37,560 nucleotides of DNA, from the NCBI GenBank assembly GCA_903949225.1, contig CAJAYZ010000238.1, positions 1-37,560 on the forward strand. The letters are read 5' to 3'. Positions 11,087 through 24,804 of the stretch are shown here, one piece after another. The position numbers and the translations under genes are program-made. The DNA comes from an uncultured Planctomycetaceae bacterium. GTDB lineage: Bacteria; Planctomycetota; Planctomycetia; Pirellulales; UBA1268. A model generated the notes under the pieces. It worked only from the letters and a program-made list of their open reading frames with translations. It was not told where the DNA came from and ran no database searches. The stretch's first letter is position 1. The number at the start of each line of letters is the position of its first letter.

Positions 11087-11371
11087 TGGCAGACTCCTGG
11101 GGCGGGGCGCCGGGGAGGGCGGGGCGCCGGGGGTGGGAACGGCCTCCTGCGACGATTGCAGGATTGGTGGCCGCGGTGGACGCGCGAGCAAATATACACC
11201 CGCTCGCCAGGGCCGCTCAAACAACCCGTGGGCTGTCCCGCCACGCTCCCATCCCGCCGGGGCGTCGCCGCCCCCCCGGACGGAGAGATTCCCGCTCTTT
11301 CCCGCCGCGTGGCGATCGGGAATACTGCGGGGCGTTCCCCGTGGCCCTGTCCGCCGCTCTTCCGAGATGCC

Positions 11372-12061
11372 ATGTCGACCCCCGTCATCCAGCTCGAGAA
11401 GGTGCGGAAGTCATTCGCGATGCCGGGGGGGGACCGGGTCGACGTCCTCGACATCGAAGCCTTCACGGTTGCCCCCGGCGAGCACCTCGCCCTCGAGGGG
11501 CAGAGCGGGTCGGGAAAGTCGACGCTCCTCAACGTCATCTCCGGGATCACCCGCCCCGATGCCGGGAGGGTGGTCATCGATGGCATCGATCTGGCCCGGC
11601 TCGACGAGGCCCGTCGCGACCGGGTGCGGGCCGACAAGCTCGGGATGGTGTTTCAGTCGTTCAACCTCCTCCCCGGGTTTACCGCCCTGGAGAATGTCCT
11701 CGTGGCGATGGCCTTCGGGTCCGGGCGTCCCGACCGGTCGCGGGCCATGGAGCTCCTCAGCGCGGTCGACCTCGGCCACCGCCTTCACCATCGCCCCGCG
11801 GAGCTCTCCACCGGCCAGCAGCAACGCGTGGCCGTGGCCCGGGCCCTCGCCAACCGGCCGCGGGTCGTCCTCGCCGATGAGCCGACCGCCAGCATCGATG
11901 CCGCCCACCAGCAGCAGGTGATCGATCTCCTCCGCACGACCTGCACCGACCACGGCGTGGCGCTCGTCGTCGTCACGCATGCCCCGGAGGTGTCGGCCCA
12001 ATTCCCCCGCCGGCTCCGTCTCGAGGACTTCAACCGCGCCGCCGCCGTCCACAAGCGCTGA
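11372..12061 (+). CDS. ABC transporter ATP-binding protein (MacB/LolD/FtsE-type)
   Basis: Walker A GQSGSGKST, signature LSTGQQQRVAVARAL, Walker B VVLADEPT and H-loop VVVTHA. This is only the 3' 229 codons of the 618-aa track ORF. Confidence 0.9.
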   Translation: MSTPVIQLEKVRKSFAMPGGDRVDVLDIEAFTVAPGEHLALEGQSGSGKSTLLNVISGITRPDAGRVVIDGIDLARLDEARRDRVRADKLGMVFQSFNLLPGFTALENVLVAMAFGSGRPDRSRAMELLSAVDLGHRLHHRPAELSTGQQQRVAVARALANRPRVVLADEPTASIDAAHQQQVIDLLRTTCTDHGVALVVVTHAPEVSAQFPRRLRLEDFNRAAAVHKR

Positions 12062-12087: not shown

Positions 12088-13425
12088 ATGAACCTCCTCG
12101 GCATCGCCTGGCGCAACATTCGCCAGCGCCCCCTCACCAGCGCCCTGACGGCGGTGTCGCTGGCGCTCGGCGTGGCGCTGGTCGTGGCGACGCTCGTCAC
12201 CGGGAGAATCGTCCAGCAGGCCTTCGAGTCGGGGGCTGGGCTCGGCTACAACATGATCGTGGGGGCGAAGGGGAGCCCCCTCCAGCTCGTCCTCAACACC
12301 GTCTACTTGATCAGCAAACCGATCGAGAACGTCGGCTGGGACTTCTATGAGGAGTTCCTCCCGGCGGCGCGGCGCGCCGACGGGGTCGACGGGAAGTATG
12401 CCGCGAGCACCGGCGTGGCCGTCCCGACCTGCATGGGGGACTACTACCGCAGCTTCCGGGTCGTGGGAACGAACTCCGATTTCTTTGGCCGGCTCACGCG
12501 AGGCGACGGCGAGCCGTTCCGGTTCGCGGCGGGAGAGAATCTCCGCGACGATGACTTCTTCGCCGGCGTGATCGGCGCGAGTGTCGCCGACACCCTCGGC
12601 CTCAAAGTGGGAGATCCGTTCGCCCCCACCCACGGCGCCGATGACGGCAAGGTGCACGACCCGTTTCATGTCGTGGGGATCCTCGAGCGCACCTGGACGC
12701 CGATCGACCGCGGTGTGTTTGTCAACATGGAGGGTTTCTACCTCCAGGATGGCCATGCCAAGCCTCTGCCGGACGGGGTGGAGCCGGAGGTGACAACGAC
12801 CGTAGCCGCAGATGGCCAGACGCCGCAGGGGCCGGTACCGCTCCCGGCAAGTCAGCGGGAAGTGACGGCGATCCTCCTCGAGACCGCATCGCTGCCGGGG
12901 TTGCCGCCGGAACTGACGGCGATGGGCCTGCGGACGGCGATCAACGAGGGGCGTGACGCCCAGGCGGCGCTCCCGGTGGCAGAGATTCGTCAGCTCCTCG
13001 ATCTCTTCGTCCGGCCCCTCGAGCTCGTCCTCCTCATGGTCACGGCGCTGGTCGTGCTCGTGTCGGCGCTCGGCATCCTCATCAGCATGGTCGGCTCGTC
13101 GCTCGAGCGGAGCCGCGATGTGGCGATCATGCGCGCCCTGGGGGCACGCCGCGGTCATGTCCTGGCGACGGTCCTCATCGAGGCTGTGCTCCTCGCTGTC
13201 GGCGGGGGGCTGGTCGGCTGGGTGCTCGGGCATGCAATCGTGGCGGCGATCGGGCCTTGGATCGCCGCCAGCGCGGGGGTCAGGGCCGGGTTTTTCTCGT
13301 CGGCGCCCGAGGCCGAGGTCCTTCTCGTCCCGTTCCTCGTCCTCCTGGCGATCCTCGCGGCCTTGCTCCCGGCGCTGGCCGCCTACCGCACCGATGTCTC
13401 CCGGTGGCTGCAGGGCCCCGGCTGA
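12088..13425 (+). CDS. FtsX-family ABC permease with MacB-like topology (TM1, a roughly 250-aa periplasmic domain, then 3 C-terminal TMs)
   Basis: The N-terminus MNLLGIAWRNIRQRPLTSALTAVSLALGVAL is typical of MacB/LolCE permeases. The FtsX region ...MRALGARRGHVLATVLIEAVLL... has three hydrophobic helices. The gene starts 26 nt after the ATPase gene. Confidence 0.85.
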   Translation: MNLLGIAWRNIRQRPLTSALTAVSLALGVALVVATLVTGRIVQQAFESGAGLGYNMIVGAKGSPLQLVLNTVYLISKPIENVGWDFYEEFLPAARRADGVDGKYAASTGVAVPTCMGDYYRSFRVVGTNSDFFGRLTRGDGEPFRFAAGENLRDDDFFAGVIGASVADTLGLKVGDPFAPTHGADDGKVHDPFHVVGILERTWTPIDRGVFVNMEGFYLQDGHAKPLPDGVEPEVTTTVAADGQTPQGPVPLPASQREVTAILLETASLPGLPPELTAMGLRTAINEGRDAQAALPVAEIRQLLDLFVRPLELVLLMVTALVVLVSALGILISMVGSSLERSRDVAIMRALGARRGHVLATVLIEAVLLAVGGGLVGWVLGHAIVAAIGPWIAASAGVRAGFFSSAPEAEVLLVPFLVLLAILAALLPALAAYRTDVSRWLQGPG

Positions 13426-13524: not shown

Positions 13525-15129
13525 ATGAAACCCAACTCCCGCTCCGCGCGCCTTTCCCGCCTCGTGGTCGCTCTCCTAACCGTCTTCTTCACCGGCAGGA
13601 TGCCGGCCGCGTCGGCGTGCCCGTTTTGTTCGGCCGTGTCGCTGACGTTCTCGCAGGAGATCGCGCAGAGTCAGGTGGCCGTGATCGCCCGGCTCGTCGA
13701 GCCCCCGACCACCGCGTCGCTGTCACCCCGGTCTGACGGCCCGCTCCCCAAGGGGCGGTTCGTGGTCGTCGAAGCGCTCAAAGGGAATGATCTGCTCGAG
13801 GGGGCGGAGCTCCTCGATGTCGATGGCGTCCGCCAGATCGAGACGATCATGCTCGAGGTCAAGCCCGCCGGCACGACCTATCTCCTCATGGCTGTCGAGC
13901 CCCCGAAGCTCGTCTGGTCGAGCCCGATCCCGGTCAGCGATCGCGGGATCGACTATCTCAAGAAGCTCGCCGACCTCCCGGCCAAGGGGGCCGATCGGTT
14001 GGCGTTCTTCCAGAAGTATCTCGAGGATGCCGACGACACCCTGGCGCGCGACGCCTATGACGAGTTTGCGGTTGCCCCCTACGACGATGTCCGCGGCCTC
14101 GAGAGCCGGATGGACCCGACGCAACTGCTCGCCTGGATCGAGAATCCGAAGGTGCCCGCCAACCGGCGTCGTCTCTACGCCACGATGCTCGGGGTCTGCG
14201 GCACCAAGGCCGACGCCGATCGCATCGGGGCGATCCTTGCCAACACCGAGCCCGATCCGGCCAACGCCGAGGTGCGTTCGGGCCTCGACGCCCTCATCGC
14301 CTGCTATGTCACCCTCAAGGGCCCCGAGGGGCTCGACATGGTCGACACCCAGTTCCTCGACCGCAAGGGGCGGAATGTTCCCTTCACCGAAACCTACGCA
14401 GCGGTGATGGCGCTGCGGTTCCTCGGCGAGGAATCGACGGTGGTGCCACGGGAGCGGGTCCTGCAGTCATTGCGGATCCTCCTCGGCGAGCCGAAGCTCG
14501 CCGACCTCGTCATCGCCGATCTCGCTCGCTGGGAGGATTGGTCGGTCGTCGACCGGCTCGGCGAACTCTTCGAGAAGGCCGACGCCGACAACCTCTTCGT
14601 CCGCGAGCCGGTCGTGAACTACCTCAAGGCCTGCCCCGATCCCCACGCCGCCGAGGTGCTTGCGAAGCTCGAGAAGCTCGATCCCGAGGCGGTCCGCCGG
14701 GCGGCGACACTGGCCGGCTTTGCGGCGGCGCTTGCCGTGCCGAAGCCGGCTGAGGGTGCCCCCGCGGCCACCGAATCCGACGGTGATCCCGGCGACCCGT
14801 CCTCTCAGCCCGGAGGCGCGGCGCCTGCCGTGACGAGCCCGCCGGCCACCGAAGTCTCGGCGGCCGAAGCGGCGCTGGCCGCCCGCATCCCCCCGGTGTT
14901 GGGCGACGAGGATGCCACGGACGAAACCGTGGCGATCGATCCTGCCCGCGTCGAGGCCGGAGGGGAGCTGAAGGCTACTCCGATGGCACCGGCCATCGTG
15001 AATGGTGGATCGACGCCCGCCGCCAATCCGTGGGTGTCGACCTTGGGGCGGTGGTGCGGCGTAGCCCTCCTGCTGGCGGCGGTGGCGGTGCTGTCTCGGA
15101 TGGCGATGCGATCCTCCGGCGCCGCGTGA
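13525..15129 (+). CDS. Exported hypothetical protein: signal peptide, CPFC motif at the predicted mature N-terminus, helical-repeat-like body, Pro/Ala-rich linker and a C-terminal TM anchor
   Basis: MKPNSRSARLSRLVVALLTVFFTGRMPAASA-CPFC (Cys codons at 13618-13629). The body is rich in short Leu/Ala/Asp helices. The C-terminus WCGVALLLAAVAVLSRMAMR is hydrophobic then basic. It is a clear paralog of the 19377-20594 product. Confidence 0.7.
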   Translation: MKPNSRSARLSRLVVALLTVFFTGRMPAASACPFCSAVSLTFSQEIAQSQVAVIARLVEPPTTASLSPRSDGPLPKGRFVVVEALKGNDLLEGAELLDVDGVRQIETIMLEVKPAGTTYLLMAVEPPKLVWSSPIPVSDRGIDYLKKLADLPAKGADRLAFFQKYLEDADDTLARDAYDEFAVAPYDDVRGLESRMDPTQLLAWIENPKVPANRRRLYATMLGVCGTKADADRIGAILANTEPDPANAEVRSGLDALIACYVTLKGPEGLDMVDTQFLDRKGRNVPFTETYAAVMALRFLGEESTVVPRERVLQSLRILLGEPKLADLVIADLARWEDWSVVDRLGELFEKADADNLFVREPVVNYLKACPDPHAAEVLAKLEKLDPEAVRRAATLAGFAAALAVPKPAEGAPAATESDGDPGDPSSQPGGAAPAVTSPPATEVSAAEAALAARIPPVLGDEDATDETVAIDPARVEAGGELKATPMAPAIVNGGSTPAANPWVSTLGRWCGVALLLAAVAVLSRMAMRSSGAA

Positions 15130-15199
15130 AGGGCGCCCGGCCTTCGGATGAGGTCCTCCCGTTCCGCGCGATCAGTCCCCTGTTCCCCGGGAAGTTTCC

Positions 15200-15886
15200 A
15201 TGGCTGCCGGTCTCTTCGATACGCCCGAGTCGTCGGCCTCGGGCGATCTTCCTCCGATCGACGATGGCTATCGTGCCTTCGGAGGGGTGACGATCGCTGC
15301 GACCGTGCTCGCGCTCCTCTCCCCCTTGGGCTTCATCGATTGGTGGCTCCTGACGGTGCCGCTGCTGGCGGTTGTCCTCGGGCTCGTCGGCTGGCGCGAC
15401 ATCCTCGCTCGCCCGGATGTCCTCGCCGGCAAGGTGCTGGCGATCGGCTCAATGGTCGTCGGCAGCCTCCTGTTCGCCGGCGGCCTTTGGTACCAAGCGA
15501 CGGTCTACGCTCGCGAACTGCCACCGGGATTCGAGCGCCTCAACTACGCGGCCCTGCAGCCCGGGGAAGGGGAGCCGGCGAACATGATCCCGGAGTCAGC
15601 GGTGAAGATGCACGGTCGCGACGTCCTCCTGAAAGGTTACATGTATCCGGGAAAACAGCAGCGCGGCATCCGCCAGTTCCTCCTCGTGCGCGACCAGGGG
15701 GATTGCTGCTTCGGTGGCAATCCGAAGATCACCGACCGGGTGCTCGTGCAGATGGCCGACAAGCAGATGATCGAGTACACGCCGCGATTGCGGAAGATCG
15801 CGGGCCGGTTCTCGATCCGTCCTGCCGGGGCCGTCGATGTCGACGGCGGGGTGTTCTATCACCTGGAGGATGCCAGTGTCCGCTGA
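15200..15886 (+). CDS. Membrane-anchored CCFG-motif protein (DUF3299-like)
   Basis: Hydrophobic helices (VTIAATVLALLSPLGFIDWWLLTVPLLAVVLGLVGW and VLAIGSMVVGSLLFAGGLW) are followed by GYMYPGKQQRGIRQFLLVRDQGDCCFGG (CC at 15704-15709). The family assignment rests on motif resemblance only. Confidence 0.65.
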   Translation: MAAGLFDTPESSASGDLPPIDDGYRAFGGVTIAATVLALLSPLGFIDWWLLTVPLLAVVLGLVGWRDILARPDVLAGKVLAIGSMVVGSLLFAGGLWYQATVYARELPPGFERLNYAALQPGEGEPANMIPESAVKMHGRDVLLKGYMYPGKQQRGIRQFLLVRDQGDCCFGGNPKITDRVLVQMADKQMIEYTPRLRKIAGRFSIRPAGAVDVDGGVFYHLEDASVR

Positions 15887-16478
15887 CCGCCACGCCCGCC
15901 GGTGGTGGGCACTCGCCCTGCTGCTGACCTCCGTCACGATCGGCTGCGCGCCGGCGGAATCTCGGGTCGCGCCGCAGCAGCGCCCGGCCACGGGGGCCAG
16001 GGAGACAGGATCGGCCGCCGCGGGCGATCTGGCGCAGGAAGAAGCAGCGGGCGCTGCAGCGCCGGTCGTCGCGGTGAAGCCCCCGGCTGTTGCCACGGGC
16101 GATGGAAGGGTGCGGGAGATCACGTTCGACGATCTCAAGCTGCCACTGGAGAAGGGGGAGCCGTTTGATCGCGGGATCCTGCCGCCGGCGGTCGACGCCC
16201 TCCAGGGGCAGCGGGTGAGGATCCGCGGCTACATCCTCCCCAGCTTCCAGCAGCGCGGGATCACCCAGTTCGTGCTCGTCCGCGACAACATGGAATGCTG
16301 TTTCGGTCCCGGCGCGCTCCTCCATGACTGCGTCGTCGTGCGGATGCGGCCGGGCAAGTCGGCCGATTTCTCGATCCGCCCGGTGGCCGTGGCGGGATCG
16401 TTCCGGCTCGAGGAGCTCAAGGGCCCCGACGGCAAGCACTTGGCCGTCTACGCCATCGACGGCGACGCCGTGGAGTAA
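15870..16478 (+). CDS. Lipoprotein-type CCFG-motif protein (DUF3299-like), tandem paralog of the previous gene
   Basis: The signal WWALALLLTSVTIGC has a lipobox. The core is GYILPSFQQRGITQFVLVRDNMECCFGPG. The ATG at 15870 overlaps the upstream stop codon (15884-15886) by 17 nt. The GTG at 15876 is an alternative start. Confidence 0.65.
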   Translation: MPVSADRHARRWWALALLLTSVTIGCAPAESRVAPQQRPATGARETGSAAAGDLAQEEAAGAAAPVVAVKPPAVATGDGRVREITFDDLKLPLEKGEPFDRGILPPAVDALQGQRVRIRGYILPSFQQRGITQFVLVRDNMECCFGPGALLHDCVVVRMRPGKSADFSIRPVAVAGSFRLEELKGPDGKHLAVYAIDGDAVE

Positions 16479-16589
16479 GCCCTTTCGGGCATCCGTGAAC
16501 CACAGGCGGGCGTCTGTTACCATCACTTTGGCCTTTGATCGGCACGCCCGCCGCGCTCTGCGGTGATCCTCACTGCCCCAACGCCCGCC

Positions 16590-17384
16590 ATGCCCTTCGA
16601 CCTCTCCTGGTTCTACGACATCCCGACAGCCCGGGCGGCGCTGCTCATGGTGGGGGCGTTCGTCGCCTTCTACTGGGCCGGGGCGGTGGTCGTGCGGCCG
16701 ATCCTGCGGATATTCGTCCGCCGGGCGCCGGGGCTCAACGACCTCATCGGCTACATCCTCTCCTGCTTCTGCGTGTTTTACGGCCTGCTCCTCGGCCTGA
16801 TCGCCGTCACGGCCTATCAGAACGTCGAGTCGGCGGAGCAGAACGTCACCCGCGAGGCCGCGGCCCTCTCGGCCCTCTATGAGGACATGTCACGATATCC
16901 CGAGCCCCACGGCCAGGATCTCCGCTGGCTGATCCGCGACTACACGCGCTACGTCATCAAATATGCCTGGCCGTTGCAGCAACAGGGAATCATTCCGGAG
17001 GAGGGCACGATCCATGCCGAGGCCCTCTTCGATCGGCTCCTCGACTTCCAGCCCAAGACTCCCGGCGAGGAGATCCTCCATGCCGAGGCGCTGCGGCAGA
17101 TCAATCACTTCCTCGAATGCCGCCGGCTTCGCCTCCATTCCGTGCGGGCAGGATTGCCGCGGGCGATGTGGATCGTGATGTTCGTCGGGGCGTTTTTCAA
17201 CATCCTCCTCTGCTGGATGTTCGACACTCGCTTCCTCACCCAGCTCGTTCTCGGCGGGATTCTGGCCGCGTATCTGGGCTTGATGATGTACCTCATCGTC
17301 GACATGAATCAGCCCTTCCGCGGCGAGGTGAGTGTTTCGCCTGAGGCTTTTGAATTGCTCTACCAGCGGATGCTCGAGGACTGA
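16590..17384 (+). CDS. DUF4239-like integral membrane protein
   Basis: An N-terminal TM, a central soluble helical region and two C-terminal TMs ending ...DMNQPFRGEVSVSPEAFE match my recollection of DUF4239 proteins. The GTG at 16563 is an alternative start. Confidence 0.6.
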   Translation: MPFDLSWFYDIPTARAALLMVGAFVAFYWAGAVVVRPILRIFVRRAPGLNDLIGYILSCFCVFYGLLLGLIAVTAYQNVESAEQNVTREAAALSALYEDMSRYPEPHGQDLRWLIRDYTRYVIKYAWPLQQQGIIPEEGTIHAEALFDRLLDFQPKTPGEEILHAEALRQINHFLECRRLRLHSVRAGLPRAMWIVMFVGAFFNILLCWMFDTRFLTQLVLGGILAAYLGLMMYLIVDMNQPFRGEVSVSPEAFELLYQRMLED

Positions 17385-17385
17385 C

Positions 17386-18708
17386 ATGCCGGTCCCCCCC
17401 GACACCCAGCCCCTCAATCGCGGCGCCGTCACCCGGCGTGAAGCGCTCCGGTCCGGGGTTGCTGCCACGCTTGCCGCCGCGCGGGTGCTGGCGCCTTCGT
17501 TGTTTGTCGGCTGTTCGCTCGGCATCCCGCCGCGGGCACCGACGGTGAGGATCGGGCTGCTCCATTCGCAGACCGGGCCGCTGGCGATCGGCTCGACGTC
17601 GCTGCGCGACGTCGAGCTCGATGCCGTGGAGCGCTTCAACGCCGCCGGCGGAATCCTCGGATTCTCGATCGATCCCCGCGCCCCCGACCCCCGGTCGCGG
17701 ACCGACCTGTTCCCCAAGCGGGCCACGACGCTCCTCGATGACGGGGCTGTGGCGCTGTTCGGTTGCTGGTCGAGCGCCAGCCGCAAGGCGGTGCTTCCGA
17801 TCGTCGAGGAGCGCGACAGCCTCCTCTTTTATCCGGTGCAGTATGAGGGGAACGAGAGCTCGCGAAACGTGATCTATGGCGGGCAGGTGCCCAACCAGCA
17901 GGTCCTCCCGGCCCTCGATTGGCTGCGGAGTGGGCCGGGGGGGGAGCGAAAGAAGTTTTTCCTCCTCGGCTCCGACTATGTCTACCCACGGACGACGAAC
18001 TTTATCGTGCGGAAGTGGCTTGCCGGCACCGGCGTCGAAATCGTCGGCGAGGAATATTTTTCCCTCGACAGCAAAGACTTCGCCCCGGTGGTAGCCCGCA
18101 TCCGCGAGCGCGGGGCCGACTGCATCCTCAATACCGTCAACGGCTCCGGGAACATCGCGCTGTTTGCGGCGCTGGCGGAGGCCGGGATCGATCCGGCGAA
18201 GGTTCCCCTGGTGTCGACGAGCGTCTCGGAGGACGACCTGCGGAGCATGCCGGCCGCCCATTCGGCTGGCCACTGGGTCCTGTCGAGCTACTTCCAGACC
18301 GTCGACACGCCCGCAAACGCCGCCTGGATGGCCGGCTTCCGTAGCGAGTTTGGCGAGGATCGCGTCTTCGGCGATTCGATGGAGGCCGCCTGGTGCCTGA
18401 TCAACCTCTGGAAGGTGGCGGTCGAGCAGGCAGGGTCGTTTAGCACCGAGGCGGTTCGCCAGGTGTTTGCCGCCGGGATCGGGTTCGATGGCCCAGGGGG
18501 ACGCATGACGATCGATCCCGCCACGCAGCACGCCACGAAACACTTCCGGCTGGGACGGGTGCGTCCCGATCGGCTCTGCGACGTCGTTGTTTCGTCGGAT
18601 GGTCCGCTCGCTCCCGACCCCTATCCGCAGGTCGCGTTCCCCGGGTGGAAATGCGATTGGACGAAGGGGGGGCTCCAGCCCGGCCAGGAGGTGTCGATCG
18701 ATGGTTGA
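17386..18708 (+). CDS. UrtA/AmiC-family (urea/short amide) periplasmic binding protein with a Tat-like signal and a lipobox-like Cys
   Basis: TRREALRSGVAATLAAARVLAPSLFVGC is followed by IGLLHSQTGPLAI..TSL.D.EL.AVE..NAAGGILG...LFGCWSSASRKAVLPIVEE...LFYPVQYEGNE...NQQ..PALDWL...FFLLGSDYVYPRTTN...SYFQTVDTPAN. This is strongly collinear with UrtA/AmiC. The ATG lies 1 nt after the upstream stop. Confidence 0.85.
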   Translation: MPVPPDTQPLNRGAVTRREALRSGVAATLAAARVLAPSLFVGCSLGIPPRAPTVRIGLLHSQTGPLAIGSTSLRDVELDAVERFNAAGGILGFSIDPRAPDPRSRTDLFPKRATTLLDDGAVALFGCWSSASRKAVLPIVEERDSLLFYPVQYEGNESSRNVIYGGQVPNQQVLPALDWLRSGPGGERKKFFLLGSDYVYPRTTNFIVRKWLAGTGVEIVGEEYFSLDSKDFAPVVARIRERGADCILNTVNGSGNIALFAALAEAGIDPAKVPLVSTSVSEDDLRSMPAAHSAGHWVLSSYFQTVDTPANAAWMAGFRSEFGEDRVFGDSMEAAWCLINLWKVAVEQAGSFSTEAVRQVFAAGIGFDGPGGRMTIDPATQHATKHFRLGRVRPDRLCDVVVSSDGPLAPDPYPQVAFPGWKCDWTKGGLQPGQEVSIDG

Positions 18709-19375
18709 GTTCGACATCGAGGTCTCCGAGGGATGCCGCTGGCTCAAGGTCATCCTCGACGACGATGACGTCCGCACCGAGCGCGGCGCGCTCTATCGGA
18801 TGAGCGGCGACATCGAGATGGACGTGCCGCTGCCGTCACCGCGGGCGATGTTTGTTTCGATGTTCTCCGACGAATCGGTGGTCCGGCCGCGGTACGTGGG
18901 CACGGGGGAGCTTTATCTCGATTCGACCTTCGGCGGCTACCACATCTTCGACGTCCAGCAGGGGGAGCGCTGGATCCTCGAGCATCGTTGCTTCTGGGCC
19001 TCCGAAGGGGAGGTGAAACTCGCGATCCACCGCGAGCGGCTCTGGACGTCGTACTGGGCCGGCGAGGGATTGCTCTGGTACAAGACGGCGCTGGTTGGTG
19101 AGGGGAAAGTGGTCCTGAGCGTCGACGGCCCTGTCGAGGAGATCGAGCTCGACAACGAGCGGGTCGTGCTCGACGGGGGATTCGCGGTGGCCCGGACCAG
19201 CGGGATCACGATGCGGATGAAGCGCCCCGCCCGCTCCTATCTAAGCCACTGGCTGTCCGGGCAGAAGCTGTCGTGCGTTTACGAAGGGACCGGACGGCTG
19301 TTCATCTGTGCCGTTCCTTACTGGCGGCAGCGATTGCAGAAGTCGAAGGAAGCCGACTCCCTTGCGTACGGCTGA
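18701..19375 (+). CDS. AIM24-family (DUF124) protein
   Basis: MVEFDIEV...LKVILDDDDVRTERGALYRMSGDIEMDV...GTGELYLDSTFGGYHIFDV..GERWILEHRCFWASEGEVKL...GEGKVVLSVDGPVEEIEL...VVLDGGFAVA fits the AIM24 pattern. AGGAGG lies 9 nt upstream. The start overlaps the binding-protein stop by 8 nt (ATGGTTGA). Confidence 0.7.
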   Translation: MVEFDIEVSEGCRWLKVILDDDDVRTERGALYRMSGDIEMDVPLPSPRAMFVSMFSDESVVRPRYVGTGELYLDSTFGGYHIFDVQQGERWILEHRCFWASEGEVKLAIHRERLWTSYWAGEGLLWYKTALVGEGKVVLSVDGPVEEIELDNERVVLDGGFAVARTSGITMRMKRPARSYLSHWLSGQKLSCVYEGTGRLFICAVPYWRQRLQKSKEADSLAYG

Positions 19376-19376
19376 G

Positions 19377-20594
19377 ATGCTTGGCCTCGATCACCTACCG
19401 GGCCGGTCAGGGCATGGGTGCCAATCGGATCGCTTTCCTATGCCGTCGGGCCGAGGGCCCGGAATCTTTCGGCTGCTCGGTCTCGCCGCAGTGCTCCTCA
19501 TCCTCCCGGCGATCTCGAGCGAAGCCTGTCCGTTCTGCGGGCCTGTTGGCGATTCGCTGGCCCGGCGCCGCGACTCGGCAGGCTACGTCTGTATCGCCGA
19601 GGCTGCGGATCGGGCCCGGCCCGACGCTTCCGGACTCCTCGCCGGCTCGTTCCGGGTGATCCAGGTGCTGCCCGACACTCCCGGCCGGGTCGACGGCGAG
19701 CCCCCCACGCTGGTCACCGCCCGGGTGGCAGCGCCGGTGGAGGGGACGGCGGTGCTGTTCGGATCGGCCGAGTCGCCCGTGCGCTGGACAGCGGTGGCGG
19801 CGGACGAGACGCTCCTCGGGCATGTCGTTACGGCGCCAGCGATCACGGAGCCTGTCGGCGAACGGCTCGCGTGGTTTGCTGCCCGCCTCGAGCATCCCGA
19901 GCCGGCGATCGCCGACGATGCCTTCGCGGAGTTTGCCGTCGCCCCTTTCCCGGCTGTCCGCGAGGCGGCGGCGGCACTCGCGGCGCGGCCTCTGGCGACC
20001 TGGGTGGCCGATCCTGCCACCGACCAACGGCGAAGGGGATTCTATGGACTGGCGCTCGGCGTCGTCGTGGCGGAGGGATCGTCCGGCGGGAAGAGGCTGT
20101 CGTCAGCCGCTCTCCGGGCGGCACTCGAGACGGCTGGCGGTGACTTCCGTGCCGGGGCTGACGGGCTGATGGCGGGGATCCTCGTCGCCGAGGGCGTCGA
20201 TGGGCTCGATTGGCTCGCCGACCGGGCCAGTCCCGATCGGCCGGTCGATCAGCGTCAGCTCCTTGCGGCCCTCCGTTTCGCCCGTGAGTATCTCACCGGG
20301 ACGATTCCCCCCGCGAGGATCTCCGCGGTGACGGCGGAACTCGCCCAAAGCCCGGCGGTGGCTGCCCTAGCGATCATCGATTTGGCCCGCGCGGAGGCTT
20401 GGGAAGAGGTCGATGCGGTGGCAGCGTGGTGGGATGCGGCCGCCGACGATCCGCTCATCCGTCGTGCCGTCGCCGGGTATCTCGTTGCCTGCCCGTCGGC
20501 TGCGGCGCGGGAGCACCTCGATCGGATTGGCCGAGAGGATCCGGCGGCCTTGGCCGCCGCCCGAGCGGCGGCGGACTTACCGCTGGGACGCTGA
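19377..20594 (+). CDS. Exported hypothetical protein, second CPFC-motif paralog (no C-terminal anchor)
   Basis: ...GIFRLLGLAAVLLILPAISSEA-CPFC (Cys codons at 19527-19538). It shares blocks with the 13525-15129 product (see findings). The ATG at 19377 is 1 nt after the AIM24 stop. The ATG at 19440 would give a more canonical signal peptide (MPSGRGPGIFRLLGLAAVLLIL...). Confidence 0.65.
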   Translation: MLGLDHLPGRSGHGCQSDRFPMPSGRGPGIFRLLGLAAVLLILPAISSEACPFCGPVGDSLARRRDSAGYVCIAEAADRARPDASGLLAGSFRVIQVLPDTPGRVDGEPPTLVTARVAAPVEGTAVLFGSAESPVRWTAVAADETLLGHVVTAPAITEPVGERLAWFAARLEHPEPAIADDAFAEFAVAPFPAVREAAAALAARPLATWVADPATDQRRRGFYGLALGVVVAEGSSGGKRLSSAALRAALETAGGDFRAGADGLMAGILVAEGVDGLDWLADRASPDRPVDQRQLLAALRFAREYLTGTIPPARISAVTAELAQSPAVAALAIIDLARAEAWEEVDAVAAWWDAAADDPLIRRAVAGYLVACPSAAAREHLDRIGREDPAALAAARAAADLPLGR

Positions 20595-20639: not shown

Positions 20640-22982
20640 TTACCGGCCCTGCGTTGCCGCGGCATCGGCGGGGGTGCTGATGACCCGTCCCGACGGAGCG
20701 CTTTCGGCCTTCCAGCCGGTGAGGGCATTGCCCCAGGGCTTTGCCGATTCCAGCGTGATCTGCGAGACCGGCATGAGCACCGACGGCACGGCCGGCGGGA
20801 GCAGCGCGGCGGCGGCGGGGCTGGCGGCCTTCGCGGGATTCGGCAGCGGAGCGGGCGTCGGAATCTCCTCGAGCGGATTGCCACCGGCCGGAGCCTTGCC
20901 GTCGCCGGCCGGCTTGGGCGCGGGGGTCGACGTCTCCTCGTTCGTGGCCGGATCACGGGGGGGGAGTTGCTGGGCCCCTGTCCCGGCGCCGATGCCGTCG
21001 AAGTCCTGCGTGATCGGCCCGCGGCTGAAGACGCCAGGGCGGGAGTGGCCGTAGTCGAGGAACAGGCTGGCGTCCCGCTGCCGGGCCCGGCGGTAGGAAT
21101 CGAAGTAGGCCTTGCCGGGCCACGGGCCTTCGGCGAGGAACACGCCGTTGTATTCGAGGAGCGAGCCTTTGCGGAAATGGAGCTGGGCGATCGAGCGGTT
21201 GTAATCGACGACCGAGCGGTAGTAGGCGCTCTCGGCGTCGGCCCGACGGCGCTGGGCGTCGAGGAGCTGGTCGAGGGTCACGGTGCCGGCATCATAGGCC
21301 GCCTGGACCGCCTCCACCTGCCGCTCGGAGGCAACGCGGCGATTGAAGTTTGTCTGCGAGAGGGCGAAGTTCGTGTCGACGTTCCGCACCGCTTCGACCA
21401 GCGCGTGCGACACTTCCATCTCCTCGTCTTGGAGCCGGGAGCGTTCACGGGCGAGCTGGAGCTGATAGTTGCGGACGGTGGAGAGCTCGCGGCGGAAGCC
21501 GATCGGCATGAGGAACTGTGCCCCGGCCTGCCATTCCTGAAACCTCCCGCTGGAGAGCGTCGAGTAGGCGTCGGTGCCGTTGAGCGGGTCGAGACCTTCG
21601 GCGTTGTAGGGGCTGTAGTTCTGATTGATGAGCTCCTGACCCATGCCGAGGAACCGGTAATAGCCGTTCATGTCGAGCCGGGGGAGAAGGAGGTTCTTCG
21701 AAGCAACGAGCTCGAGCTCCTTCTGCTTGACCACCCACTTCTGTCGACGGAGCTCCGCCGACCGGGAGAGCGATTCGACGAGCGACTGCTGCCAATCGAA
21801 GGTGACTCGGGCCGTCGTCGGCTCGTCGGAGGGGCGGATGAGCCGGCCGTCGGAGGCCGAGAGCCCCATCATGTAGCGAAGCCTGTTCTCGCTCCGGTAG
21901 ACGTCGGTGAGCGCGTTCTCAACGTCGCTGCGGAAGAAGAAGTACTGCTCGCGGGCCTGGGCCTCCTTGTCAGCTTCTCCGCCGCGCGACTGCTCGACGT
22001 AGAGGGCGTGGACCTTGCGCCATGCCTCCAGCGCGCTGTCGCGGCCGGCCTTGCGGGCCTCGAGATTGCGGTAGGCGAAGTAGAGTTCCCAGTACGCCTG
22101 CTCGGTGTCGCTGACCATATTGCGGACACCGATCTCGAAGTCGGCCAGCGACTGATCAGCGAGCACGCGGGCAATGAGCACGCCGCGGAAGTTAGGGCGA
22201 CCGTTGATGTTGTTGAAAGCGTCGGGGCCGGCGATCCGGTTGTAGGTCAGCCCCGCGCCCTGGAGGAGGGGCTGGTTGAAGGTGAAGTCGTAGTTGGTGA
22301 GCCATGTCGACGGCACGCCGTCTTGGCGGATTGGGGAGTTGTTATTGTCGTAGACGGTCTGGTTTTGGATCCCGAACGTGCTGCCGGTCGCCGACACCTT
22401 GCTGATCCCGGTCGTCCACGTGCCGATGTCGCCGAGGAGTTTCTGCTGGAAGATCTGCGTGCCGACGCCGCCGACGTTCTGCGGCCGGTTCTGCCGGGCC
22501 CAGGTGAGCGAGCTGGAGAGCTGGGCATCAAACGACGCAAGCGCGCTCTCGACGCCGCGGAAGGGGTCGGTCTCGCTGATCGCCGGATCGTAGACGGTGG
22601 GGTAGGCGGCCGGATTGGTGAGCAGCGACACCGCCGGCTCGCCGGCCTGGGGCCGTGGGCCACCGAAGCTCTGGAAGCGGCCTCCGAGGCTCCTGAGCAC
22701 TTTGCCATTCTCGAGTGCCGTCCGGATGGCGTCCTCGAGCGACACCTCCCAGACCTGGTCGAAGTTGGCGTTGGAGAGCGTGAGCGGCTCGATCGTGCCG
22801 GCCGCCTCGTCGAGCGGCTGGTGGACCGTGTCGGGGTACTCGATCTTCTGGATGGCACCGACGTAGTGCGAGAGGTCGCCGTCCTCGAAGAAGTAGAACG
22901 GCTGCCGCGGGGCGCAACCGCTGGCCACGAGCGTGAGGCTCGTCATGACCGTCCAGGCTCGTCGCAGCAGGAGGTTTGGCAC
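20640..22982 (-). CDS. TolC-family outer membrane efflux protein (lipoprotein type) with a long Pro/Ala-rich C-terminal tail
   Basis: A GTG start at 22982 gives (M)PNLLLRRAWTVMTSLTLVASGC. The body has the typical OEP repeats (LSLEDAIRTALENG..., FNQPLLQGAG, LADFEI..R....D.EQAYWELY.A..NLEA, ...AQLHFRKGSLLEYN). The last approximately 150 aa are P/A/G-rich. The ATG at 22946 is an alternative start. Confidence 0.8.
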   Translation of the reverse strand: MPNLLLRRAWTVMTSLTLVASGCAPRQPFYFFEDGDLSHYVGAIQKIEYPDTVHQPLDEAAGTIEPLTLSNANFDQVWEVSLEDAIRTALENGKVLRSLGGRFQSFGGPRPQAGEPAVSLLTNPAAYPTVYDPAISETDPFRGVESALASFDAQLSSSLTWARQNRPQNVGGVGTQIFQQKLLGDIGTWTTGISKVSATGSTFGIQNQTVYDNNNSPIRQDGVPSTWLTNYDFTFNQPLLQGAGLTYNRIAGPDAFNNINGRPNFRGVLIARVLADQSLADFEIGVRNMVSDTEQAYWELYFAYRNLEARKAGRDSALEAWRKVHALYVEQSRGGEADKEAQAREQYFFFRSDVENALTDVYRSENRLRYMMGLSASDGRLIRPSDEPTTARVTFDWQQSLVESLSRSAELRRQKWVVKQKELELVASKNLLLPRLDMNGYYRFLGMGQELINQNYSPYNAEGLDPLNGTDAYSTLSSGRFQEWQAGAQFLMPIGFRRELSTVRNYQLQLARERSRLQDEEMEVSHALVEAVRNVDTNFALSQTNFNRRVASERQVEAVQAAYDAGTVTLDQLLDAQRRRADAESAYYRSVVDYNRSIAQLHFRKGSLLEYNGVFLAEGPWPGKAYFDSYRRARQRDASLFLDYGHSRPGVFSRGPITQDFDGIGAGTGAQQLPPRDPATNEETSTPAPKPAGDGKAPAGGNPLEEIPTPAPLPNPAKAASPAAAALLPPAVPSVLMPVSQITLESAKPWGNALTGWKAESAPSGRVISTPADAAATQGR

Positions 22983-23034
22983 GGTTGGGGGTCCGGCGTA
23001 CGGGCATTGAGGATCACGGTGATTCAAAAGCTGC

Positions 23035-23132
23035 CGCTGCGCCCAAGGGGTTCGCCCGTCGAAGCCGACGGACCGATCCCGACGCAGTGCCCCCCGACGC
23101 TGCATCCGACTCGCGTGCACTTGGGCGCAGCG
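23035..23132. repeat. 13-bp perfect inverted repeat (CGCTGCGCCCAAG / CTTGGGCGCAGCG) flanking 72 nt
   Basis: The arms at 23035-23047 and 23120-23132 were read directly, with an internal small hairpin CGTCG-AAGC-CGACG. It lies between the apbE stop and the TolC-like start, both on the minus strand. Confidence 0.85.
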
Positions 23133-23248: not shown

Positions 23249-24256
23249 TTAGCGCTGTAGAGGGCGAGTGCGTTCCCCAACACCCGGCCAGCGACTCGTC
23301 TGCACCTCGCGGACGATCCTTTCACCGTCCCCGTCCACCGAAACGAACCGCCCGGCGCAGCCTGCCTGGTTTTCCAGGAGCGTCCGGCCGCGGACCGGCC
23401 CGAGGACATTCGCCGCGGTCGCCAGGGCATCGGCGGTGGTGGCGTCCGCGGCGATGACCGTCACCGCTGCCGGCCCGTCGATGCCGATCCCGGTGCGGGG
23501 ATCGACGATGTGGCTGTAGCGGCGGCCGCCGATCGCGACCGACTGCCTCGCATCCCCGCTGGTGGTGATCGCCGCGTGGGCGAGAAGCACCTCCCCGGTC
23601 ATGGCCGCCGGCGTGCCGGGGATCGGGTCGATCGCGATCCGCCACCCCTCCTCCCCGGGTGGCGCTCCCGAGGCTCCGACATCACCCGAGGCATCGACGA
23701 GGGCCGAGTCGATTCCCTGCTCGGAGAGGATTGCCAGGGCCCGGTCGATCGCATAGCCCATCCCAATGCCGCCGAGATCGAGTCGCATCCGCGGGCGGGT
23801 GAGCCGGACGCCGCGGGGGGCGGCGACGAGCACGAGGGCTCCGGCTCCCACCGCCGCCCGGGCGGCGTCGAGCTTCGCAGGGAGCGGGAGGGCACCGGAT
23901 CGGCGAGACTGACGCCAGAGGGTCGTCAGCGGCCCGACGGTCGGGTCGAAGGCACCGTCACTGGCGTCGCGGAACGCCACGGCGCGGGTGAGGACCTCCC
24001 ACATCTCGTCGCTCACTGGCACAGGGCTTTCCATCGGGGCCGCGGCCGAGAGCCGGGAGAGCTCGGAGTCGGGACGGTAGTCGGAGAGGATCGCCTCGAG
24101 CCGTTCGACCTCGTCGAGGGCCGCTGCCACCCCCCGCTCGCCGGCGGCAGGCCTGGCGGCGTAGACGGTGACGGTCCAGGGAACCCCCATCAGCCGCCGG
24201 CCGCCGGAGATGCGAACCAGCGGCACGTCGGCAGCCGACATGGTATTTTTCTTCAT
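23249..24256 (-). CDS. apbE: FAD:protein FMN transferase (ApbE family)
   Basis: RLMGVPWTVTVYA...ELSRL...FDPTVGPL..LW...LDLGGIGMGYAIDRA...SALVDASGD...HIVDPRTG... is collinear with ApbE. The ATG at 24256 is preceded by GGAGGGGAG. The upstream part of the 520-aa track ORF is an antisense shadow. Confidence 0.85.
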   Translation of the reverse strand: MKKNTMSAADVPLVRISGGRRLMGVPWTVTVYAARPAAGERGVAAALDEVERLEAILSDYRPDSELSRLSAAAPMESPVPVSDEMWEVLTRAVAFRDASDGAFDPTVGPLTTLWRQSRRSGALPLPAKLDAARAAVGAGALVLVAAPRGVRLTRPRMRLDLGGIGMGYAIDRALAILSEQGIDSALVDASGDVGASGAPPGEEGWRIAIDPIPGTPAAMTGEVLLAHAAITTSGDARQSVAIGGRRYSHIVDPRTGIGIDGPAAVTVIAADATTADALATAANVLGPVRGRTLLENQAGCAGRFVSVDGDGERIVREVQTSRWPGVGERTRPLQR

Positions 24257-24742
24257 ATGGAACTCTCCCCTCCGCCGGTCGTGATTCGTTTCGACTGCAC
24301 GCCCCTGCGTGCCCTCGCTCGTGCCGAGGTGCCGGCCGAGGCATCGCCCCGGTTCCGCGCGCTGGTCGGGCGGATGCAGGCCGCGGTCGCCAAGCATGGC
24401 GTCCGCAATGCCTATTATCTCACGAACGCCTCCTGCACGTTCCGGTTCACGAATGCCCCGGAGCGTGGATGGGTGGCCTTCGATGTCGAAGGAACCGTCC
24501 TGACCGACGATCTCGACACCCACACGGTGGGGAGCGATCTGACGGTGAAGCTCACCAAGGAAACCTGCGACTGGCTGACGCAGCCGGCCGTTGCCTGGCT
24601 CGACCTCAGCGTCCGCCGTGCGGTCGAGGCGGAGTTCGACCGCTACATCGCCGCCGGCGATCTGGGGCGGACGCTCGAGCGACTGGCCCGCGAACAGGCC
24701 GACAGCGATGCCGCCGGCGGGTTCCTCGGGATGAATCTGTAA
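24257..24742 (+). CDS. Hypothetical 161-aa protein, divergent from apbE
   Basis: This frame has strong G/C third-position bias from the ATG at 24257 to the TAA at 24740-24742. I recognised no family. The start is uncertain; the GTG at 24281 and the ATG at 24374 are alternatives. Confidence 0.5.
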   Translation: MELSPPPVVIRFDCTPLRALARAEVPAEASPRFRALVGRMQAAVAKHGVRNAYYLTNASCTFRFTNAPERGWVAFDVEGTVLTDDLDTHTVGSDLTVKLTKETCDWLTQPAVAWLDLSVRRAVEAEFDRYIAAGDLGRTLERLAREQADSDAAGGFLGMNL

Positions 24743-24751
24743 AGAGCGCGG

Positions 24752-24798: not shown

Positions 24799-24804
24799 CC
24801 TCCT

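Follow-up and report, generated by a model that had tools for sequence, protein, structure and literature searches.

The closest characterised system to the locus described here is the PA4063-66 module of Pseudomonas aeruginosa, together with the ZrgABCDE module of Vibrio. In these Zur-regulated modules, a MacB-type ABC transporter and a DUF3299 protein are paired with a periplasmic metal-binding protein, PA4063 or ZrgA, and the systems affect Zn/Co homeostasis (PMC9817125, PMC11481552, PMC8561739). The substrate of the proteobacterial system is debated.

The six genes of interest lie in a planctomycete window of 37,560 nucleotides, which is the whole stretch of DNA that was analysed. They share with PA4063-66 and ZrgABCDE a split MacB-type ABC transporter with a separate ATPase and FtsX/MacB_PCD permease (PMC9817125, PMC11481552, PMC8561739), and also a periplasmic OB-fold DUF3299 protein plus further periplasmic accessory proteins. 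However, this operon lacks the His-rich zinc-binding protein ZrgA/PA4063 (DUF2796) and instead encodes two proteins that we call A and B. In addition, there are two DUF3299 paralogs (D1 and D2), which carry CCFG where PA4066 has ACIH. Unlike the situation in the proteobacterial modules, no Zur-type operator was seen in the region upstream of the module, nor was any metal-responsive operator or riboswitch, and the promoter there resembles the ordinary sigma-70 type.

Conserved operon and partner proteins

11372..12061, + strand, ABC ATPase, MacB/LolD-type nucleotide-binding subunit (Pfam ABC_tran, E 1.5e-34)
12088..13425, + strand, MacB-type (type VII) ABC permease, FtsX plus MacB periplasmic core (FtsX E 3e-15, MacB_PCD E 5.5e-11)
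13525..15129, + strand, protein A, long membrane-tethered CPFC-OB-HEAT paralog, 534 aa (ORF, GC3 0.85, AlphaFold pLDDT 78)
15200..15886, + strand, D1, membrane-anchored DUF3299-like protein and paralog of D2, vicinal Cys-Cys CCFG at 15704-15709
15837..16478, + strand, D2, DUF3299 protein, probable lipoprotein (VTIGC), CCFG at 16296-16301 (Pfam DUF3299, E 2.9e-5, above cut-off)
19377..20594, + strand, protein B, short soluble CPFC-OB-HEAT paralog, 405 aa from ATG 19377 (ORF, homologs)
20640..23120, - strand, TolC-like outer-membrane efflux protein, convergent with B (Pfam OEP, E 4.4e-19)

In 50 of 61 loci the gene directly before A, in the same orientation, encodes the permease, and D1 and D2 follow A in all 58 loci with enough sequence, D1 being found in distant loci as well. 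B is located downstream in 26 of 31 loci. The ATPase gene lies upstream of the permease and A both in the window and in the distant loci L083, L084 and L089. All six genes are contiguous in L084, whose A protein is ~45% identical, while L083 and L089 also have the five-gene ABC-A-D1-D2 block and L088 has a D1-D2-B block. Two CCFG-type DUF3299 proteins are present at every CPFC locus with enough sequence except the distant L086, where a B-type gene stands alone. The ancestral unit comprises the ATPase, the MacB-type permease, A, the two DUF3299 proteins and B. The 4 kb that the first-pass annotation placed between A and B are present in the window, but they are in part a lineage-specific insertion, and B directly follows D2 in more divergent loci. 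The TolC-like gene adjoins B in most Pirellulales loci and is absent from that place in L084; its product is a possible, not universal, partner of the module.

Cys/His motifs are found in every periplasmic partner. The vicinal cysteines of the DUF3299 proteins are invariant, the CCFG motif being at least 90% conserved, and D2 matches the PA4066 structure (PDB 4hsp, E 5.8e-4) with CCFG aligned to ACIH. A periplasmic cysteine and three histidines of the permease, C115 (12430), H182 (12631), H190 (12655) and H223 (12754), are invariant, being conserved in 66/66 orthologs that include those of L083 and L084. The closest solved relatives of the permease are MacB-like Spr0695, MacB, YtrF, LolE, FtsX and HrtB, and the best NCBIfam matches of the ATPase, all below cut-offs, are LolD, YbbA, DevA and MacB. 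An UrtA-like protein encoded in the window carries the lipobox-like site LFVGC. The conserved operon, with its MacB-type ABC transporter and Cys-Cys DUF3299 pair, is the strongest clue to the function of A and B and was overlooked in the first-pass annotation.

Paralogy, domain architecture and the CPFC tip

Both open reading frames reported in the first-pass annotation are present, and their products are true paralogs, as had been suggested there. BLASTP aligns A (13525-15129) and B (19377/19440-20594) with 28% identity over 389 aa (E 1e-21), and the two remain collinear from their signal peptides through to where B ends. The start of B is more likely ATG 19440 (MPSGRG...), as in most homologs, giving 384 aa and a normal 29-residue signal peptide. 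No model in Pfam or NCBIfam covers this CPFC-OB-HEAT family, which is represented by ~2,600 clusters at 50% identity and whose named matches all come from Planctomycetia or Pirellulales MAGs. There are more than 2,171 homologs of A and 472 of B. The parts of the two proteins are as follows.

13525..13617, + strand, signal peptide of A, aa 1-31 (...PAASA), predicted signal peptidase I cut (basic n-region, hydrophobic core, AxA)
13618..13629, + strand, CPFC of A, aa 32-35, predicted mature N-terminus (invariance in homologs)
13642..13929, + strand, OB-type beta-barrel of A, aa ~40-135, NtA/TIMP-like fold (AlphaFold, Foldseek)
13939..14733, + strand, HEAT/ARM-like repeat domain of A, aa 139-403 (HEAT_2, Foldseek, conserved columns)
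14734..15030, + strand, disordered Pro/Ala/acidic linker of A, aa 404-502 (pLDDT below 50)
15031..15108, + strand, C-terminal transmembrane anchor of A, aa 503-528 (predicted helix; transmembrane segment in 70/72 long-type members)
19527..19538, + strand, CPFC of B, predicted mature N-terminus (118/118 full-length close homologs)
19557..19799, + strand, OB-type beta-barrel of B, mature aa 11-91 (AlphaFold model, Foldseek)
19806..20576, + strand, HEAT/ARM-like repeat domain of B, mature aa 94-350 (model, Foldseek)

The CPFC motif hardly varies within the family: 120/120 close homologs of A have it, as do 118/118 full-length close homologs of B and all 100 sequences of a diverse alignment (A3). 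Among 143 diverse representatives carrying the motif, both cysteines are retained in 142 and the full C-P-F-C in ~138, and the extended motif reads C-P-F-C-[ST]-A-V-x-[PQ]-T-[LF]. This conservation is far beyond chance.

The signal peptides had been described as ending directly before CPFC, and the junctions ...GRMPAASA/CPFC in A and ...PAISSEA/CPFC in B agree with this. The cleavage site is predicted from position statistics over the 143 diverse sequences, of which 134 have A/S/L/V/T/G at position -3 and 127 have A/G/S/C/T at position -1. At -2 there is no constraint, with R, E, Q and W among the residues there, and Pro is enriched at -6 to -4. Since the -3/-1 pattern is that of signal peptidase I, cleavage is predicted to occur directly before Cys1. 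In ~11% of members the AxA site is located one residue further upstream, which probably leaves one extra residue before Cys1. Thus, the first cysteine is predicted to be the mature N-terminus or to lie one residue from it. The signal peptide of A has neither a twin-arginine motif nor a lipobox.

In the AlphaFold models of A and B, a five-stranded OB barrel is fused to HEAT repeats. This barrel, overlooked in the earlier reading, occupies the stretch of ~100 residues that separates the CPFC tip from the helical repeats. In A a short helix precedes five to six strands, and in mature B (pLDDT 95.1, pTM 0.91; 88 for the ten N-terminal residues) helix 11-17 is followed by five strands. The best Foldseek matches of the A barrel in the PDB are agrin NtA domains (1jb3, 1pxu, 1jc7 and 3i70; E ~1e-3, TM ~0.6), with TIMP-1/-2 as further matches (E ~1e-2). 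Among the matches listed for B, the only non-helical ones are NtA (1jc7, E 0.1, and 3i70) and TIMP-1 (9sop_A). No enzyme fold appears in either model.

The helical body proposed in the first-pass annotation is well founded, since Foldseek returns HEAT/ARM structures for both models and the C-terminal 260 residues match HEAT_2, as in PBS-lyase-type proteins, in 68/100 family members, the match of A itself being sub-threshold in Pfam. This part resembles alphaRep, deoxyhypusine hydroxylase and importin-alpha structures. However, the conserved His/Glu metal sites of deoxyhypusine hydroxylase are missing from it, and, unlike in other HEAT_2 proteins, a secreted OB domain with a CPFC tip comes before it. 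The repeats include many invariant charged residues and, in A, a conserved motif A-x-D-A-[FY]-x-E-F-A-x-A-P. A third cysteine is located in this domain (C370 of A, within ACP at 14632-14634; 20490-20492 in B), and it cannot be an obligatory third ligand because it is just 86% conserved.

The two proteins differ in how they end, as had been noticed. In the model of A, residues 410-500 are disordered and a C-terminal helix spans 503-528, whereas B stops directly after the shared domain. A C-terminal transmembrane segment is present in 70 of the 72 long representatives and absent from 68 of the 71 short ones, and the division into tethered and soluble forms is thus both real and ancient. The linker varies widely in sequence and from ~60 to 350 aa in length. 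Its short motif RIPPVLGDEDATDE..IDP is lineage-specific, since 109/120 close homologs have it but no diverse homolog does.

Alternative readings of the tip

CPFC and CPYC form the active-site pattern of glutaredoxins, and DsbA, which is likewise periplasmic, has CPHC. Perhaps, then, the tip is a redox-active dithiol/disulfide with which A and B oxidise, reduce or sense disulfides, for example by exchange with the DUF3299 vicinal Cys-Cys or by serving the transporter as a redox switch. The middle two residues are invariant, just as they are in redox CxxC families; this, the vicinal cysteines of the partners and faint Pfam matches (Glutaredoxin in 3/100 members, Redoxin in 2/100) all point this way, and CcmH is a precedent for a periplasmic CxxC reductase that lacks a thioredoxin fold. 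We nevertheless consider this reading unlikely. The models show no thioredoxin fold, and the motif opens the chain instead of following a beta strand and capping the N-terminus of a long helix. In addition, the operon encodes no DsbB/DsbD-type electron partner, and an ATP-driven ABC partner would be unexpected for a thiol-disulfide relay. A purely structural role is a little less likely still. Here a C1-C4 disulfide would staple the N-terminus, leaving the cysteines with no chemistry of their own, and A and B would stand in for a MacA-type adaptor, as scaffolds or adaptors that hold partners of the ABC machine in the HEAT groove. HEAT/ARM folds are typical protein-binding scaffolds, the invariant charged residues are consistent with this, and the operon has no membrane-fusion (HlyD) adaptor despite the nearby TolC-like gene. 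However, a staple rarely needs four invariant residues at a fixed cleavage position across ~2,600 clusters, and the co-occurrence of CCFG and Cys/His motifs in all partners would be a coincidence.

The fold matches raise another candidate. TIMPs inhibit metalloproteinases, and I38 inhibitors inhibit serralysins, by chelating the catalytic zinc through the alpha-amine and carbonyl of the N-terminal residue, and A and B might act on a periplasmic metalloenzyme in this manner, with Cys1 as the chelator and the OB barrel as the wedge. NtA and TIMP-1/-2 are the only non-helical matches among those listed for both paralogs, the cysteine is at an N-terminus made by signal peptidase as in TIMPs, and the order of Cys tip, short helix and first barrel strand is the same as in the TIMP layout; in agrin NtA, too, an N-terminal segment with Cys and a short helix come before an OB-type barrel. 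Yet the fold similarity is modest (TM 0.47-0.61, E 1e-3 to 0.2), no sequence similarity was found, and TIMPs have C-x-C where A and B have C-x-x-C. Conserved cysteines are missing from the barrel, and with them the defining TIMP disulfides, C1-C70 and C3-C99; a HEAT domain is also attached to it. With no known protease partner, no metalloprotease gene in the window or the related loci examined, and a probable extra N-terminal residue in ~11% of members, such inhibition is very unlikely. Heme or tetrapyrrole chaperoning is slightly harder still to credit, being suggested by motif resemblance: both conserved cysteine sites are Cys-Pro (CPF and the later ACP), as in heme-regulatory motifs, HrtB (7w78) is among the solved relatives of the permease, and the permease carries its invariant Cys and three His. 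The MacB-type transporter HrtBA and the OB-fold protein CcmE offer parallels, and Planctomycetes are rich in c-type cytochromes. However, CcmE is not among the best 50 fold matches listed for either model, the motif is not CxxCH and position +5 is never His, and no heme-related genes are consistently adjacent at the loci examined. Finally, Cys at +1, Ala at -1 and the sub-cut-off LolD match of the ATPase could suggest that Cys1 is lipid-modified and that the adjacent LolD-like ABC transporter sorts A and B. This is extremely improbable, given that R, E, Q or W is frequent at -2 and that Ala, not Leu, predominates at -3, which follows the AxA rule and not a lipobox. The organism appears to use normal lipoboxes, since D2 and the UrtA-like protein show lipobox-like sites, and the permease matches LolC/E solely in the generic FtsX domain.

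A candidate carrier pair for thiophilic cargo

We tentatively favour, at somewhat less than an even chance, the reading that A and B are a tethered and a soluble carrier for a thiophilic cargo, because an invariant CPFC tip is combined with an ABC-pump operon. Metal binding by A and B is putative, and several observations weigh against the reading. CxxC is usually a disulfide in the oxidising periplasm, and invariance of the middle P and F is what redox-active CxxC motifs or recognition epitopes typically show, more so than metal sites of the HMA type. The incompletely conserved third cysteine, the probable extra residue ahead of Cys1 in some members, the lone B-type gene of L086 and the upstream region, with its sigma-70-like promoter and no metal-responsive operator or riboswitch found, also count against it. 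So does the crystal structure of the related PA4066, in which no zinc site is evident (PMC11481552).

The first-pass annotation had read A and B as a possible hand-off pair. CPFC conservation, cleavage site and the possibility of an enzyme fold were checked, and none of the results refuted this idea, which is supported in part. The analysis shows the paralogy of A and B, the conservation of the motif, the pattern at the cleavage site, the fold, the tether split, the linkage in an operon and the Cys/His motifs of the periplasmic partners. What we infer is the chemistry and the hand-off, along with free thiols, cargo binding, cargo identity, transport direction and physical contacts.

Two kinds of system offer parallels for a carrier pair. 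The CxxC of MerP passes Hg to the Cys-Cys pair of MerT, and the OB-fold protein CusF works with CusCBA; a small periplasmic carrier feeding a soft metal to a membrane machine, and a CxxC facing a vicinal Cys-Cys, would mirror these arrangements. Unlike in those metallochaperones, the metal cargo of A and B is presumed; neither the sequences nor the folds specifically match CusF or HMA domains, and CusF uses His/Met ligands. In LolCDE-LolA-LolB, a type VII ABC transporter works with carriers of paralogous structure, one soluble and one membrane-attached. The likeness is conceptual, as the folds of the carriers are not related, neither A nor B is a lipoprotein and the permease is not a LolC/E ortholog.

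In the proposed carrier mechanism, A and B would be the periplasmic accessories of the module formed by the ABC ATPase, the MacB-type permease, the membrane-anchored and lipoprotein DUF3299 proteins and the pair itself. Both would leave the cytoplasm through Sec, and signal peptidase I would cleave them immediately ahead of Cys1, so that a C-P-F-C tip, with two thiols beside a free alpha-amine, is exposed on a rigid OB-plus-HEAT body. A would be held on the inner membrane by its C-terminal helix through the long flexible linker, while B would be free in the periplasm. The tip may bind and exchange the cargo, most likely a metal ion or metal chelate, which might travel among the periplasmic Cys/His cluster of the permease, the vicinal Cys-Cys of the DUF3299 proteins and the CPFC tips. 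Energy would come from ATP-driven mechanotransmission by the MacB-type transporter. Such a scheme resembles the Lol pathway, with a tethered carrier relaying cargo to a soluble one.

The paralogs A and B and their family

There are two CPFC proteins encoded in the window, a long one (A) and a short one (B), and both lie in a gene array that also includes an ABC transporter and two DUF3299 or DUF3299-like proteins (D1 and D2).

11372-12061, + strand: ABC ATPase, first gene of the array
12088-13425, + strand: FtsX/MacB_PCD permease, after the ATPase and before A
13525-15129, + strand: A, an ORF of 534 amino acids (GC3 0.85, coding-typical codon-position G+C)
15200-15886, + strand: D1, after A
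15837-16478, + strand: D2, a DUF3299 protein after D1, with a 50-nt overlap with D1 if translation starts at ATG 15837
16563-19375: bestrophin-like, orphan UrtA-like binding protein and AIM24-family genes, in this order, between D2 and B
19377-20594, + strand: B, an ORF of 405 amino acids (GC3 0.77, coding-typical codon-position G+C)
20640-23120, - strand: TolC-like gene, convergent with B

The G+C content of the window is about 68%, and ORFs that overlap A and B, whether in another frame or on the reverse strand, are artefacts commonly met in high-GC DNA. As the first-pass annotation had proposed, A and B are diverged paralogs: they align collinearly from their signal peptides as far as the C-terminus of B, with 28% identity over 389 residues (BLASTP, E 1e-21), and each carries a basic and hydrophobic N-terminal segment followed by Ala and then CPFC. 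The start codon of B is most likely the ATG at 19440 (MPSGRG...) rather than that at 19377, because CPFC is found at residue 25-30 in most homologs and several close homologs begin at the later position.

In library scans, A and B matched no Pfam or NCBIfam family except HEAT_2, below threshold (18.9 bits for A alone, under the gathering score of 27.7), and no sequence in the whole PDB was matched by profile at E up to 10, leaving no solved relative. There are nevertheless more than 2,171 homologs of A and 472 of B in a word-indexed database. A joint profile recovers 2,614 clusters at 50% identity (E up to 1e-3), or 1,025 at E up to 1e-30, and relatives occur at 506 places in a collection with one genome per species. 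Family members are annotated as "hypothetical protein" at most. All named sources in the cluster look-ups and the profile search are Planctomycetia or Pirellulales MAGs, the other records being unlabelled or misnamed; among the MAGs, a single contig shares 98% identity with the window. Eight loci (L003, L005, L009, L010, L014, L030, L038 and L066), with up to 98% identity to the window, come from MAG records named as Candidatus Kuenenia stuttgartiensis, Chitinophaga or Chitinophagaceae; for records with this planctomycete locus, such titles are likely wrong. A and B define an unnamed planctomycete-wide family.

The family is split into two ancient classes. A C-terminal hydrophobic anchor is present in 70 of the 72 representatives of the long form, in which a low-complexity linker spans 60 to 350 amino acids, and is absent from 68 of the 71 representatives of the short form. 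These counts, together with a predicted C-terminal helix in A (residues 503-528), bear out the earlier suggestion of one tethered and one soluble paralog. The classes also differ in the signature after the motif, which is ...T-F-x-E-E-[IM] in long forms and ...T-L-A-Q-R-R in short ones. Within the linker of A (window 14734-15030), a short motif, RIPPVLGDEDATDE..IDP, is shared by 109 of 120 close homologs and by no diverse member. In a different long-type subfamily (proteins P0249, P0272, P0275, P0285, P0292, P0303 and P0306), a C-terminal LLWSVxNGWFERLI[FY] is conserved.

The CPFC motif and the predicted fold

The CPFC motif is present in 120 of 120 close A-type homologs and in 118 of 118 full-length B-type homologs. 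Among diverse representatives it is found in 143 of 147, the remaining four being truncated at the N-terminus, and about 138 of these 143 carry CPFC itself; the others have CDFC (two), CPLC, CPSC or CPFW.

Residues at each position in 143 aligned motif regions of diverse members, with the first Cys of CPFC (Cys1) as +1
-6 to -4: Pro enriched
-3: A84, S14, L14, V12, T6, G4
-2: free; includes R18, E8, Q8, W7
-1: A111, G8, S5
+1: C143
+2: P141
+3: F141
+4: C142
+5: S/T/A/G/N/P/D/E/K among residues listed
+6: A105
+10: T119
+11: L or F

As judged from these position statistics, the residues preceding CPFC fit the AxA pattern of signal peptidase I. This pattern stands immediately ahead of Cys1 in about 89% of the 143 diverse members, in which Cys1 is predicted to be the first mature residue. 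In the other members, about 11%, position -1 holds a bulky residue; an AxA site then mostly lies one residue upstream, and in those with the shifted AxA the Cys would be residue 2 of the mature chain.

The AlphaFold model of full-length A (pLDDT 78) contains the following elements.

N-terminus: signal helix
Residues 42-48: short helix
Residues 51-124: barrel of five to six strands
Residues 139-403: HEAT-like helices
Residues 410-500: disordered linker
Residues 503-528: C-terminal helix

Mature B, modelled from a 100-sequence alignment, has a short helix, a five-stranded barrel and HEAT helices (pLDDT 95.1, pTM 0.91). The first ten residues have a pLDDT of 88, and therefore the CPFC tip is predicted to be ordered. 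When the models were compared with PDB structures by Foldseek, the top matches were those of the barrel of A to the agrin NtA domain (1jb3, 1pxu, 1jc7 and 3i70; E about 1e-3, TM about 0.6, 125-131 columns) and TIMP-1 and TIMP-2 (E about 1e-2), and the remaining matches of A were HEAT/ARM proteins. For B, NtA and TIMP-1 were the only non-helical matches among those listed, and they were weaker (E 0.1-0.24). Over both paralogs, the NtA and TIMP matches range from TM 0.35 to 0.61 and from E 9e-4 to 0.24. The models thus suggest that the N-terminal domain is an OB barrel with an NTR/TIMP-like layout. Kinship of this domain with the OB domain of DUF3299 was rejected, with an hhalign probability below 1%. 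The helical body had been described as HEAT/ARM-like from its sequence, and this description holds, given that HEAT_2 matches 68 of 100 members (best E 1.5e-9) and that Foldseek returned HEAT/ARM structures. To our knowledge, the combination of a CPFC tip at a processed N-terminus with an NTR-like OB barrel and HEAT repeats is undescribed.

An ABC/DUF3299 module

Gene neighbourhoods were counted by tblastn in 80 genome loci (L003-L082). D1 and D2 follow A at all 58 loci with enough sequence, the permease lies directly upstream of A at 50 of 61 (the others having an inverted ABC pair or a gap of several kb), and a B-type gene is located downstream at 26 of 31. In more divergent loci (e.g. L044, L050, L066, L068, L076, L080 and L081), D2 is followed by B without intervening genes, which marks the three genes separating them in the window as a lineage-specific insertion. 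A locus about 45% identical (L084) has contiguous ABC, permease, A, D1, D2 and B genes and lacks the TolC-like gene. Two other distant loci of about 45% identity (L083 and L089) carry ABC, permease, A, D1 and D2, a third (L088) has D1, D2 and B, and a fourth (L086) has B by itself. A and B very probably work as parts of this ABC/DUF3299 module.

Several neighbouring genes have features of their own. In the UrtA-like protein, a lipobox-like LFVGC comes after a Tat-like TRREAL motif. The TolC-like protein is unusually long (826 amino acids) and carries a Pro/Ala-rich extension at the C-terminus and a lipobox-like LVASGC close to the N-terminus; its gene is syntenic in many loci with an ApbE-family gene (23249-24811, - strand). 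Located at 26673-30595 is a PSCyt1/PSCyt2/PSD1 gene (818 amino acids) and then a DUF1501 gene (503 amino acids), a typical planctomycete pair that also occurs near the family members of L083 and L086.

The periplasm-exposed partners carry conserved Cys or His residues. D1 and D2 are themselves paralogous; D1 has N-terminal TM segments, and D2 has a lipobox-like VTIGC. D2 scores above the Pfam cut-off for DUF3299 and matches PDB 4hsp, which is the OB-fold protein PA4066 of P. aeruginosa (PMC8561739). The most conserved element of D1 and D2 (at least 90%) is CCFG, which aligns with ACIH of PA4066 and recurs in both DUF3299 genes wherever a distant locus carries them. It includes an invariant vicinal Cys-Cys pair:

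15704-15709, + strand: Cys-Cys of D1
16296-16301, + strand: Cys-Cys of D2

In the periplasmic domain of the permease, C115 (12430), H182 (12631), H190 (12655) and H223 (12754) are conserved in 66 of 66 orthologs and form a candidate ligand cluster. Thus, with CPFC, CCFG and the permease residues, each periplasm-exposed component of the module has an invariant Cys or His motif.

Among characterised systems, PA4063-66 of Pseudomonas and ZrgABCDE of Vibrio come closest; in both, a split MacB-type ABC transporter is combined with DUF3299 and a periplasmic zinc/cobalt-binding protein. These systems are Zur-regulated and aid growth under zinc limitation, and the Pseudomonas system has lately been proposed to be a cobalt-pyochelin exporter (PMC9817125, PMC11481552, PMC8561739). 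The module described here likewise has a separate ATPase, an FtsX/MacB_PCD permease and co-encoded DUF3299, and is a variant of this known, poorly understood type of ABC system. However, the His-rich DUF2796 protein (ZrgA/PA4063) is missing from the operon genes of the window and from the called genes of L001, L083, L084 and L089, and the CPFC proteins are present in its place as added periplasmic components. In DUF3299, a Cys-Cys motif stands where PA4066 has Cys-x-His. No metal-type operator or riboswitch was recognised upstream: alignment of the upstream regions revealed no conserved palindrome and Rfam found no riboswitch. In relatives, sigma-70-like hexamers (TTGACA...TAGAAT-like) occur just 5' of the ABC ATPase start, in the region corresponding to 11225-11371. 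A conserved TTGAGC-N18-TATATT promoter of the divergent GAPDH gene is located at 11191-11220 (- strand).

Possible functions of the CPFC proteins

The functional interpretation offered by the first-pass annotation survives the checks of motif conservation, cleavage position and fold that it had set for itself, and the chemistry is putative. Our preferred reading, which we hold tentatively, is a relay in which A, B, the DUF3299 proteins and the permease pass on a thiol-bound cargo. A rigid OB-HEAT body would carry the C-P-F-C tip bared by signal peptidase, and A, on a long leash, would form a carrier pair with soluble B. The two DUF3299 proteins and the Cys/His cluster of the permease would take part with them in the exchange of a cargo that is thiophilic and most probably a metal or metal chelate, and mechanical energy would come from the MacB-type ABC transporter.

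Other explanations give CPFC a different role. That it is a redox-active dithiol on a non-thioredoxin scaffold seems rather unlikely. The modelled OB barrel and HEAT helices include no beta-alpha-beta fold and no PDB sequence match was found, which excludes the thioredoxin superfamily (Grx/DsbA) and settles the earlier question of a known enzyme fold; Pfam Glutaredoxin and Redoxin match faintly, in only 3 and 2 of 100 members. It is doubtful that the motif forms only a structural disulfide on a scaffold protein. A third Cys (C370 of A, in ACP) is kept in 86 of 100 diverse sequences, and conservation of only 86% rules it out as an obligatory partner of CPFC. A TIMP-like inhibitor that chelates zinc through its N-terminus would be in keeping with mature chains that, as in TIMP, are predicted from the position statistics to begin with Cys, but we consider it improbable. 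The N-terminal cysteines of TIMP-1 are bonded to barrel cysteines (C1-C70 and C3-C99). By contrast, the barrel of A and B has no conserved Cys, the sole other conserved one being in the last HEAT repeat (86%), and therefore the TIMP disulfides are absent. Moreover, the Pfam TIMP and NTR models are missing from the listed 25 families with the most matches in 100 members (E up to 1) and from the matches of A and B alone, and neither the window nor six related loci contained a neighbouring metalloprotease gene.

Heme handling of the Cys-Pro type is quite improbable. Both conserved Cys sites are Cys-Pro, namely CPF (A 13618-13626; B 19527-19535) and ACP (A 14632-14637; B 20490-20495), and we take these dipeptides to resemble heme-regulatory motifs. 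A c-type cytochrome CxxCH site was rejected because His is absent among the residues listed at +5. Finally, lipidation of A and B is hardly credible, as Ala at -3 (84 of 143) and residues such as R18, E8, Q8 and W7 at -2 fail the lipobox [LVI][ASTVI][GAS]C.

The thiol-cargo relay can be extended to a more speculative reading, to which we give only a modest chance, wherein the module is a planctomycete-wide, Lol-like system for periplasmic trafficking of thiophilic cargo (a metal ion, metal chelate or heme) via NTR/TIMP-like OB-HEAT carriers with an N-terminal working site. A type VII ABC mechanotransducer would load or unload two carrier pairs, each with a tethered and a mobile member. In one pair, a bacterial OB module of NTR/TIMP-like kind would be joined to HEAT repeats, and the site at work would be the N-terminus made by signal peptidase, comprising the alpha-amine and the two C-P-F-C thiols, and cargo would be exchanged with the vicinal Cys-Cys of the variant DUF3299. 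If true, this would be the first mechanistic handle on the DUF3299/MacB-type (Zrg, PA4063-66) systems. The conserved Cys/His motifs of all periplasmic components are clear mutational targets and make the relay model testable. A and B would also represent a rare bacterial instance in which, as in TIMPs, a signal-peptidase cut makes the functional site.
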